Source: Escherichia phage CEC_Kaz_2018. Taken from it: a DNA stretch of 44,283 nucleotides. A model generated the notes under the pieces. The model saw only the letters and a program-made list of their open reading frames with translations. It did not search any database and was not told the DNA's origin. Below, one piece after another: positions 3,051 to 5,167 of this stretch. The stretch lies in sequence record NC_073070.1. The stretch is one strand, 5' to 3'. Position numbers and translations under genes: made by a program. The number at the start of each line of letters is the position of its first letter. Position 1 is the stretch's first letter.

Positions 3051-4475
3051 ATGGCACGATTCCGACGCCGCGAATATCAGAAGTTGATAACCGCGTTCAT
3101 CCTCAAGCATAAGCGATGTAATATCTGGGCGACAATGGGATCCGGTAAAACCGGAGCGACAATGTGGGCGCTGAATAAAATGTTCCAGACTGGCGTCCTG
3201 TCCCATCATGAGGACCGCGTACTGGTGCTGGCCCCGCTGCGTGTTGCGTCGGGTACATGGCCCCCGGAACAGGAGAAATGGCGGTTCTCATCCCTGCTGG
3301 TCGTAGACGGCACCGGACCGGAGAAGGACCGTATTGCCGCGCTTGATAGCGACGCTAACGTGGTTTGTGTTAACTACGATGTGGTCGAGTGGCTGGTCGA
3401 ATATTACGGCGATGCGTGGCCCTTTACGGTCGTTGTTGCCGATGAATCGACTAAGCTGAAAGGCTATCGTAGCAAGCAGGGGAGCAAGCGCGCCCGCGCA
3501 CTGGCAGCGATTGCACATAAACACGTCAAGCGCTGGATTAACCTTACAGGCACACCAGCACCAAACGGGCTGAAAGACTTATGGGGTCAGACGTGGTTTG
3601 TCGACGGTGGCGAACGCCTCGGCAGTAGCTATAAGGCATTCACCGATCGCTGGTTCATTAGCAAGCCTGTTAAGCCTGGCAGCTTCACGATGCAGCACGC
3701 TCCGCTAAAGAACTCCGAGAAAGAAATACAACAACGCCTGTCTGACGTATCACTAACCGTTGACGCGGCTGAATACTTCGGATGCGACAAGCCAATCTAT
3801 ACGCCGGTTGTTGTGGACCTGCCGAAGAAAGCCCGCAAGATTTACGATCAGTTTGAAAGCGAGCTATTTGCAGAACTGGAAAGCGGGACCGTAGAGGCGG
3901 CGAACGCTGCGTCGAAGACCATCAAGTGCCTTCAGCTTGCGTCCGGTGCCGTGTATAAGGTGGACGAAGACGGCGAACGGACCGACGAGTGGGTGAAGAT
4001 TCACGACGCGAAGCTGGACGCGCTGGAAAGTATCGTGGAGGAGTTGAACGGTGCGCCGTTGCTCGTTGCGTATCAGTACAAGCATGACCTGGCACGTCTT
4101 AAGAAGAAATTTCCGCACGGCGTTGCGTTGGGTAAAGGTAAGCAGGGCAATAAGGATATGGAAGCGTGGAACAGAGGCGAGATCCCCATCATGTTTGCAC
4201 ACCCGGCATCGGCAGGCCACGGCCTTAACTTGCAGGACGGAGGACATCACCTGGCAATCTTCTCCGATACCTGGAACTTTGAGCACTTTTCGCAGATCGT
4301 TGAACGTATCGGGCCAGTTCGCCAGATGCAAGCCGGACACCCTCGTCCGGTATTCGTCTACATTATCCAGGCGCGCGGCACACTGGATGAACTGGTCGCA
4401 GAGCGTCGAGACAGTAAGCGAGATATCCAGGACGACTTGATGGAATACATGAAAGCTAAAAAGGCGCGCATATGA
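3051..4475 (+). CDS. SNF2/DEAD-like superfamily II helicase
   Basis: Walker A GSGKTG, DExx-like VVADES, LTGTP motif; start at ATG 3051 (in-frame inside track ORF 2961-4475). Confidence 0.8.
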   Translation: MARFRRREYQKLITAFILKHKRCNIWATMGSGKTGATMWALNKMFQTGVLSHHEDRVLVLAPLRVASGTWPPEQEKWRFSSLLVVDGTGPEKDRIAALDSDANVVCVNYDVVEWLVEYYGDAWPFTVVVADESTKLKGYRSKQGSKRARALAAIAHKHVKRWINLTGTPAPNGLKDLWGQTWFVDGGERLGSSYKAFTDRWFISKPVKPGSFTMQHAPLKNSEKEIQQRLSDVSLTVDAAEYFGCDKPIYTPVVVDLPKKARKIYDQFESELFAELESGTVEAANAASKTIKCLQLASGAVYKVDEDGERTDEWVKIHDAKLDALESIVEELNGAPLLVAYQYKHDLARLKKKFPHGVALGKGKQGNKDMEAWNRGEIPIMFAHPASAGHGLNLQDGGHHLAIFSDTWNFEHFSQIVERIGPVRQMQAGHPRPVFVYIIQARGTLDELVAERRDSKRDIQDDLMEYMKAKKARI

Positions 4476-5167
4476 TTATCTGGTCATTATTCGACGGCAG
4501 CGGCTTGATGATTGAGCGTGCTGCCGAGATGGGGCATAAGTGTTATTGCTTCAACTACTCCGAAGCCGATCACGGCTCGTACCTGGACTACCGGATTTAT
4601 GGGCGCGGTATCCGATATCGTAATGAGTTTATCGATCTGGACTTCGTGGACCGCGCGATGAATGGTGATTTCGGCACGCCGGATATCATTTATGCATTCC
4701 CGCCGTGTACGGATCTGGCAGTGAGCGGTGCACCCGCTTTCCCTCGCAAGCGTGCTAAAGACCCTGCCTTTCAGCTTAAGGCGGTGCGCACCGCGAAGAT
4801 TGCCGCTTACTTAGGTGACTTCTTTGAAGTGCCATATATGATTGAGAATCCGCGCAGTGTGCTTTCCACCCAGTGGCGCAAGCCGGATCACTCATTCGAC
4901 CCGTGGGAGTATGGCGGATATCTGCCGGAGGATGACGTACACCCGCTCTTCCNGGAATACATCAACGCTCGCGATTCATATCCGAAGCTGACCTGCTTAT
5001 GGACCGGCAACGGCTTCCGTATGCCAGAGAAGAGACCTGTTTTCGTTGAAAAAGGGTACTCGAAGCAGTATAGTCGCCTCGGAGGCAAATCAGCCCGCAC
5101 AAAATTAATCCGGTCGCTCACTCCGCGCGGCTTCGCGATAGCGGTTAACGAGGAAAATTTAAGATGA
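4472..5167 (+). CDS. compact DNA (cytosine-5) methyltransferase-like protein
   Basis: motif I-like SLFDGSG, motif IV-like FPPCTDLAVSG with catalytic Cys, motif VI-like IENPRS; only 231 aa so target-recognition domain and motifs IX/X appear absent; ATGA overlap with helicase stop. Confidence 0.5.
   Translation: MIIWSLFDGSGLMIERAAEMGHKCYCFNYSEADHGSYLDYRIYGRGIRYRNEFIDLDFVDRAMNGDFGTPDIIYAFPPCTDLAVSGAPAFPRKRAKDPAFQLKAVRTAKIAAYLGDFFEVPYMIENPRSVLSTQWRKPDHSFDPWEYGGYLPEDDVHPLFXEYINARDSYPKLTCLWTGNGFRMPEKRPVFVEKGYSKQYSRLGGKSARTKLIRSLTPRGFAIAVNEENLR

Follow-up and report, generated by a model that had tools for sequence, protein, structure and literature searches.

We show that positions 4472-5167 of the Escherichia phage CEC_Kaz_2018 genome (sequence record NC_073070.1; the whole stretch of 44,283 nucleotides analysed here is called the window) encode a genuine full-length member, 231 amino acids (aa) in length, of a very large family of compact phage C5 methyltransferases. 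Our analysis makes it very probable that the gene encodes an active S-adenosylmethionine (SAM)-dependent DNA C5 methyltransferase of this phage family of ~230 residues, the most probable target being CCWGG and the proposed role anti-restriction. The existence of the family, its annotation and its basic activity are already on record, and the window adds no new biology to them. An earlier note on this DNA had drawn attention to the gene as an unusually compact cytosine-5 methyltransferase-like protein with PCT in place of PCQ. The gene and the motifs identified in its product are as follows.

4472..5167, plus strand: compact C5 methyltransferase gene of the phage 'mini-Dcm' family (PHROG 757), 231 aa, ATG start.
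4484..4504, plus strand: motif I SLFDGSG, residues 5-11, predicted SAM-binding loop, read from the translation; set by hhalign against LSLFDGIATG of DNMT3A and DLFAGLGG of M.HhaI.
4697..4729, plus strand: motif IV FPPCTDLAVSG, residues 76-86; aligns with GSPCNDLS of DNMT3A and GFPCQAFS of HhaI.
4841..4858, plus strand: motif VI IENPRS, residues 124-129, with Glu125; aligns with ENV of HhaI, DNMT3A and E. coli Dcm.
4979..5008, plus strand: motif VIII-like strand YPKLTCLWTG, residues 170-179; global hhalign sets KLTCLW against RARYFW of DNMT3A, and in the model a strand runs from 174 to 179.
5081..5158, plus strand: conserved C-terminal block LGGKS..TK.IRSLTPRGFAIAV, residues 204-229, delimited by conservation and by helices of the model.

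The membership of the protein in the family is evident from its match to PHROG 757 ('DNA methyltransferase') with an E-value of 5e-82, spanning residues 1-229. A search of 5.8 billion proteins returned 2,863 homologues, among the matches listed mostly of 225-250 aa with few shorter fragments, and an exhaustive search of representatives at 50% identity gave 822 clusters, nearly all of 225-250 aa. Using tblastn against 50,697 phage records we found matches in 1,529, with a query coverage of at least 80% in 1,376 of these; the matched records have Escherichia, Klebsiella, Salmonella, Shigella, Vibrio and others as hosts, and many are annotated as dcm or cytosine methylase. Carriers include Drexlerviridae, rV5-like myoviruses, Klebsiella siphoviruses and phage Tls, in which the gene is annotated dcm, and in all searches made the family members came from phage genomes and metagenome contigs. 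The compactness of the protein as described in the earlier note is therefore real, with homologues nearly all in the range of 225-250 aa, and a truncation through faulty sequencing can be dismissed, as thousands of homologues have the same length. The mini-methyltransferase module is also found inside helicase/UvrB-like phage proteins of 1,100-1,400 aa (BFVD A0A6J5SE15_1 and A0A6J5NPY6_2) and as the C-terminal half of proteins of 400-450 aa, the N-terminal parts of which have no Pfam match; eight homologues of greater length (292-453 aa), scanned against Pfam for fused domains, returned no matches.

All three motifs named in the earlier note, i.e. SLFDGSG, FPPCTDLAVSG and IENPRS, were recovered in the 231-aa translation, and its assignment of the protein as cytosine-5 methyltransferase-like is supported by the PHROG match, by motifs I, IV and VI being in register with known enzymes and by a model with the C5-methyltransferase fold. 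The predicted catalytic nucleophile Cys79 is encoded by positions 4706-4708 inside motif IV. The X at residue 161 of the translation is due to an N at 4953; the same site is a Pro in the Dhillonvirus phage B2 (MG581355.1), the gene of which starts with GTG vs ATG in the window. Conservation was read from an alignment of 65 sequences, 33-83% identical to the window protein, which forms its first row. Ten residues are invariant in these 65 sequences, the window protein included, i.e. C79, G86, E125, P127, P144, Y170, K172, T174, W177 and P185, motif I is conserved, and in the C-terminal part R214, S215, P218, G220 and A224 are each conserved in at least 90%. Together with the PHROG match and the number of homologues, the invariance of Cys79, Gly86 and Glu125 shows that the motifs are not there by chance. 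The PCT sequence is indeed present, and because T80 is conserved in at least 90% of the aligned homologues it is the norm of the family and no lesion. Between the methyltransferase genes of B2 and of the Dhillonvirus KarlBarth (Bas17) there are 51 synonymous and 3 non-synonymous codon differences, showing that the gene is under strong purifying selection in natural isolates.

These data bear directly on the possibility of the gene product being a catalytically dead, domesticated DNA binder, or of an error in sequencing or assembly having cut the open reading frame (ORF) short. Consistent with such a product, the window protein lacks a sequence match to PF00145, NCBIfam or the PDB, and M.HhaI and M.HaeIII, with 327-330 aa, are ~100 residues longer. 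Thousands of homologues of equal length, the identical ORF length in three Dhillonvirus versions, the invariant catalytic Cys and Glu together with the conserved motif I, the 51 vs 3 codon differences, the activity of a homologue of the same size and a complete and confident structural model all argue against it, and we assign a next to negligible probability to this explanation. The domesticated inactive binder that the earlier note had envisaged is contradicted in particular by the invariance of Cys and Glu and by the ratio of synonymous to non-synonymous codons.

Direct searches with the window protein having produced no usable match in Pfam, NCBIfam or PDB sequences, a comparison of folds was needed. 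The AlphaFold2 model, calculated from the 65-sequence alignment, has a mean predicted local distance difference test (pLDDT) value of 94.8 and a predicted TM-score of 0.91, with no segment below a pLDDT of 50, and it forms one complete, confident domain without disordered ends. In this model the window protein has the fold of a C5-methyltransferase catalytic domain. The fold comparison yielded the highest score for DNMT3B (14.1, with 188 of the 231 residues aligned), followed by the phage carboxymethyltransferase CmoX (8yf3; 12.6), DNMT3A (12.2), the prophage enzyme 3g7u (12.1), M.HhaI (11.6) and, with 10.9 each, M.HaeIII and DNMT1. With Foldseek, the top 50 structures were all DNMT3A, 3B or 3C. 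Comparing the family profile by hhalign with the DNMT3A catalytic domain, the DNMT3A sequence used being identical to PDB chain 5yx2_A, resulted in an E-value of 3.8e-5 with motifs I to IV in register; with M.HhaI it was 0.016 and with E. coli Dcm 0.078, both with motifs I, IV and VI in register, the latter alignment covering only motifs I-VI. Against these three enzymes, with a global alignment to DNMT3A included, motifs I, IV and VI have the canonical order and spacing.

The region following motif VI is where the phage protein is reduced. A global profile alignment with DNMT3A pairs ENP with ENV and KLTCLWTGN with RARYFWGN, placing the invariant K172-x-T174 at the position of R790-x-R792 in DNMT3A and R163-x-R165 in M.HhaI. 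Only ~35 residues separate the motif VIII-like strand from the conserved C-terminal helices, which in the model span 208-214 and 219-229 and have a high pLDDT, and a loop or insertion of ~25 residues (151-169) lies ahead of the strand, which together account for the small size of the protein. Compared by eye, the C-terminal IRSLTPRGFAIAV may be the counterpart of RQRLLGRSWSVPV in DNMT3A, standing in for motifs IX-X, while profile comparisons restricted to the last 36 or 72 residues with DNMT3A and M.HhaI gave spurious alignments only and nothing significant. The earlier argument that such a short protein leaves no room for a working enzyme does not hold, as a homologue of the same size with 53% identity is reported to produce 5-methylcytosine (5mC) in vivo and the model aligns with DNMT3B over most of its length.

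This homologue is the Dcm-like enzyme of the Drexlerviridae phages KarlJaspers (Bas06, Hanrivervirus) and K42. The KarlJaspers gene bas06_0055 (711 bp, 236 aa) is annotated 'Dcm-like C5 cytosine methyltransferase', and the window protein is 53% identical to its product end to end (E=6e-85). The K42 genome is 95.4% identical to that of KarlJaspers and its dcm gene likewise has 711 bp (preprint 10.1101/2023.08.16.553469). Of the phage escapers of retron Ec86, 4/4 had mutations disrupting or potentially disrupting dcm, and expression of K42 Dcm was toxic only in the presence of Ec86 (10.1101/2023.08.16.553469). Analysis by LC-MS (liquid chromatography coupled to mass spectrometry) revealed a high 5mC content of the multicopy single-stranded DNA (msDNA) of the retron with wild-type K42 Dcm and a low content with a C82A/E128A/K175A/K176A mutant or the empty vector, and altering CCTGG in the msDNA stem-loop to ACTGG, CATGG or AATGG abolished Ec86 defence (10.1101/2023.08.16.553469). 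Later papers cite Dcm as an established trigger of Ec86. In the pairwise alignment, C82, E128 and K175 of the K42 enzyme correspond to C79, E125 and K172 of the window protein.

MG1655 is a dcm+ strain, and BL21, the native host of retron Ec86, is naturally dcm-minus. The Ec86 msDNA in MG1655 contained little 5mC unless the phage enzyme was expressed (10.1101/2023.08.16.553469). Because this msDNA is low in 5mC before the phage enzyme is supplied, the latter does something that the host Dcm does not, suggesting a difference between the two in quantity, in the form of the substrate or in specificity.

The following mechanism for the window protein is derived from the fold and motifs of C5 methyltransferases. 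Motif I (SLFDGSG) would hold SAM and the target cytosine would be flipped out, whereupon Cys79 of the PPCT loop is predicted to attack C6 of the flipped cytosine, Glu125 of ENP to protonate N3 and the methyl group to be moved to C5. The enzyme would do so with a stripped-down architecture of the DNMT3 type, in which all core strands are kept and an insertion of ~25 residues and a stub of ~35 residues take the place of the target-recognition domain. The start of the gene overlaps the helicase stop, and it is probably co-expressed with replication genes, by which newly made phage DNA would become methylated, most probably at CCWGG as with the related K42 enzyme. Methylation of these sites may shield the phage from EcoRII-type restriction in hosts without Dcm. 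The same methylation would be a liability, since methylation of CCTGG in the msDNA of Ec86 (Eco1) switches on this abortive-infection system.

Several observations weigh against the gene encoding an active CCWGG methyltransferase. In Pfam (E<=0.1, including PF00145), NCBIfam and PDB sequences the window protein has no match, only 4/65 of its relatives match PF00145, weakly and with a best E-value of 3e-4, and a search of PDB sequences with the family profile returned spurious Rossmann matches only, plus M.HaeIII at E=0.93. In M.HhaI and DNMT3A a motif VIII Arg contacts the flipped cytosine; from the alignment, its place seems to be taken by an invariant Thr, with Lys172 two residues ahead, and R136 or R214 might substitute for it in space. 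A BLASTP comparison with E. coli Dcm gave E=0.23 with spurious segments, i.e. no detectable similarity and none reaching into the target-recognition domain, because of which the CCWGG specificity is not transferable by homology; on sequence grounds 'Dcm-like' is a functional label and does not denote orthology. The K42 mutant altered four residues together, the fourth of which, K176, corresponds to Leu173 in the window protein, and the CCWGG specificity of K42 Dcm was assumed from its name and backed only by the msDNA site mutants (10.1101/2023.08.16.553469). The 'Dcm-like' copies of other Dhillonvirus genomes do not differ substantively from the window gene and are known from annotation alone. 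Finally, phage T1, in which tblastn did not detect the gene, has 83 CCWGG sites vs 102 expected, rendering the retention of these sites non-discriminating.

The latter point emerged from an analysis of site frequencies, in which expected counts come from a Markov model unless stated as shuffle. CCWGG occurs 141 times in the window vs 154 expected, 145 times in KarlBarth vs 147 and 125 times in KarlJaspers vs 122. In a shuffle test of the window the expectation was 69, the excess reflecting E. coli-like oligonucleotide usage only. The retention of CCWGG was rejected as a proxy for specificity, as T1 without the gene also keeps its sites, and the test is uninformative because methylation by the host Dcm accounts just as well for the pattern. 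In the window, the counts of CCSGG and GATC lie close to those expected, GATC with 176 sites not being avoided. Many palindromes of 6 bp are strongly purged (observed/expected: GGCGCC 1/20, TCCGGA 0/17, AAGCTT 0/15.5, GCCGGC 2/17.5, CAGCTG 0/12.7, CGGCCG 0/11 and AGGCCT 0/10), and CTAG is also low (14/52). T1 contains 65 CCSGG sites, in contrast to only 2 in KarlJaspers.

As an alternative to strict CCWGG we considered that the C5 methyltransferase is active but reads its target loosely, reads a shorter site or depends on DNA structure, e.g. with CC, CCN or CCNGG as sites or with a preference for hairpin or single-stranded DNA. This would be the minimal or promiscuous methylase of the earlier note, the one of its speculative readings that retains an appreciable, if small, probability. 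Such an enzyme would be in agreement with the tiny recognition module of ~35 residues from the motif VIII strand to the C-terminal helices, with the nearest solved structures being DNMT3 enzymes, which read only CpG, with the lack of likeness to E. coli Dcm beyond the catalytic motifs and with the msDNA being low in 5mC in dcm+ MG1655 until the K42 enzyme is expressed; literature searches aimed at a genome-wide methylome of a phage with the gene turned up none. However, Ec86 defence is lost upon mutation of either C of the msDNA CCTGG, and the putative recognition segments are highly conserved with Y170, K172, T174, W177 and P185 invariant, fitting one fixed target. Moreover, B2 and 74 other phage records among the tblastn matches, which span several genera, list K-12 MG1655 as host. 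This strain has McrA, McrBC and Mrr, and widespread RmC methylation (R being a purine and mC methylcytosine) is expected to be restricted there, CmCWGG being no McrBC substrate. A coverage of CCNGG is unlikely in view of KarlJaspers (MZ501090, bases 1-50000), which keeps its 125 CCWGG sites but has only 2 CCSGG sites vs 11.6 expected. Taken together, we judge a relaxed specificity improbable and prefer CCWGG as target of the window enzyme.

The transfer of another group than methyl, e.g. C5-carboxymethylation of the CmoX type with carboxy-SAM (Cx-SAM) of the host, or the first step of a hypermodification, is very improbable. E. coli makes Cx-SAM via CmoA, and CmoX draws on this Cx-SAM when it is produced in E. 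coli (PMC12783734). In CmoX-type enzymes, the active-site Arg R350 mirrors the N374K exchange in M.MpeI and binds the carboxylate of Cx-SAM, and their genes usually adjoin those for CmoA, the Cx-SAM synthase, and for CmoY or an amide ligase (PMC12783734). The atypical variants of motifs IV and VIII in the window protein (PCT and K-x-T) could be seen in this light. In a manual reading, however, F221 appears to occupy the position of R350 of CmoX, N374 of M.MpeI and N304 of M.HhaI, like W893 of DNMT3A, and R219 to correspond to R891 of DNMT3A, suggesting an aromatic residue at the corresponding motif X position. CmoA or amide-ligase genes were found neither in the scan of the window from 2,200 to 8,400 nor in the annotation of KarlBarth, which lists no other modification genes and no Cx-SAM synthase, amide ligase or deazaguanine genes. 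The product of the K42 homologue is 5mC by LC-MS, and DNMT3A, 3g7u and HhaI score about the same as CmoX in the fold comparison. The different base-modification chemistry that the earlier note had held possible thus finds no partner genes of this type in KarlBarth and disagrees with the product measured for the relative.

Should the compact enzyme be active, it might be the smallest known natural C5 methyltransferase (~230 aa), DNMT3-like, with K-x-T for R-x-R, a stub plus insertion for the target-recognition domain and a substrate preference unlike that of the host Dcm, a speculation we put forward tentatively, as it is rather unlikely to hold in full. If true, the enzyme might efficiently methylate hairpins or single-stranded DNA, retron msDNA being an example, or read a shorter site, which would explain why the phage enzyme and not the Dcm of MG1655 methylates the msDNA and fires retron Ec86.

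The genes flanking the methyltransferase gene were assigned by a Pfam/PHROG scan covering positions 2,200-8,400 of the window.

3051..4475, plus strand: SNF2-type DNA helicase gene, upstream; Pfam SNF2-rel_dom E=2.8e-10, PHROG 62 E=1.5e-156; start as in the B2 annotation.
5164..5487, plus strand: HNH-like (homing-endonuclease-like) gene of 107 aa, downstream; PHROG 99 E=3.7e-16, Pfam HNH_3 at only E=0.08.
5569-6033, plus strand: ORF of 154 aa; PHROG 10530 E=2.4e-83, labelled 'DNA ligase'; no Pfam match.
6020..6505, plus strand: Dam-family N6-adenine methyltransferase gene, 161 aa; PF05869 E=1.9e-35, PHROG 111 E=8.8e-54.
6707-7177, plus strand: HAD-like gene; PHROG 415 'polynucleotide kinase' E=1.4e-34, Pfam Acid_phosphat_B E=3.5e-5, under its cut-off.

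The gene order is DNA polymerase I, VRR-NUC (PF08774), SNF2 helicase, methyltransferase, HNH-like gene, 154-aa ORF, Dam, HAD and DUF6378. The ORF called by the program for the helicase begins at GTG 2961, while the B2 record begins the gene at 3051 and has a 74-aa ORF (2822-3046) annotated ahead of it. At both junctions the methyltransferase gene has ATGA overlaps of 4 nt, with the helicase stop (4475) and with the HNH-like start (5164), and the last 14 nt of the 154-aa ORF are shared with the start of the Dam gene. We hence found the neighbours as the earlier note had described them, i.e. the ATGA overlap with a degenerate HNH-like gene and, farther downstream, the Dam and HAD genes. Its designation of the region as a DNA-modification island is overstated, the neighbours being an ordinary replication and nucleotide-metabolism module. 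The 'DNA ligase' label of the 154-aa ORF is doubtful, since the ORF has no Pfam match and falls far short of the size of a ligase.

The HNH-like ORF has 'ARVAW' for 'HR..W' and 'VVCRQR' for 'vDH' and keeps the 'NRISNLYLV' tail. As the usual histidines are missing from its sequence, it is judged degenerate and looks like a decayed homing endonuclease kept between the methyltransferase gene and the next gene. A functional partnership with the methyltransferase is unlikely, no such gene lying beside the KarlJaspers homologue; the HNH-like gene merely belongs to the surroundings, and methylation does not depend on it.

Phage B2 is colinear with the window and of the same length (44,283 bp), and its record annotates 4472-5167 as 'putative DNA cytosine methyltransferase C5' (AUG84571.1). 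Positions 2-11000 of the window have the same coordinates in B2 without indels, ~8% of the positions being different (892 substitutions plus 17 N); the whole window contains 70 N. By megablast, phage Zar3M (95%) is closer to the window than B2 (91.6%). The fully annotated Dhillonvirus KarlBarth has the same gene order as the window, and its bas17_0036, 'Dcm-like C5 cytosine methyltransferase', encodes a protein of 98.3% identity.

A Dhillonvirus carrying the gene is predicted to be resistant to EcoRII-type (CCWGG) restriction in dcm-minus hosts and sensitive to retron Ec86/Eco1. A literature search for a paper directly linking Dhillonvirus with retron Eco1 found none. The two predictions bear on the choice of host strains and of therapeutic phages, for which the gene might serve as a useful marker. 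The family furthermore is an attractive minimal scaffold to study the least amount of protein with which a cytosine of a defined sequence can be flipped and methylated.

Comparing the window protein with known C5 methyltransferases, the catalytic domains of DNMT3A, 3B and 3C have the same type of stripped-down architecture, at a sequence identity of only 12-17% and with no evidence of direct ancestry. Unlike the 231-aa phage protein, the DNMT3 catalytic domain has ~285 aa with a longer loop for target recognition, assembles with DNMT3L or as homo-oligomer and reads CpG. E. coli Dcm and the M.EcoRII type (PF00145) share with it the presumed product, 5mC at CCWGG, and the order of motifs I, IV and VI, whereas Dcm has 472 aa with a large target-recognition domain, and the phage protein has neither this domain nor a vsr partner. 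Ordinary bacterial enzymes have a target-recognition domain of 80-200 residues where the phage protein has ~35 residues. M.HhaI and M.HaeIII contain a separate domain of this kind of roughly 80-100 residues, and they have PCQ and a Q-x-R-x-R motif VIII and are part of restriction-modification pairs, the phage gene being an orphan that encodes PCT. CmoX (8yf3), with ~350 aa, is set apart by its size and its linkage to CmoA/CmoY, neither of which is seen for the window protein, and apparently also by its defining Arg. The Dhillonvirus copies in KarlBarth and B2 represent the same gene with 98-99% protein identity at the same place between the helicase and HNH genes. The KarlJaspers dcm belongs to a different lineage (Drexlerviridae vs Dhillonvirus) with hypothetical genes as neighbours and without a helicase and HNH gene with ATGA overlaps. 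The K42/KarlJaspers Dcm and the window protein have the PPCT, IENP and K..TCLWTGNGF motifs and the C-terminal IRSLTPRGFA block in common, and both genes lie in the genome of a lytic coliphage with early or replication genes around them.

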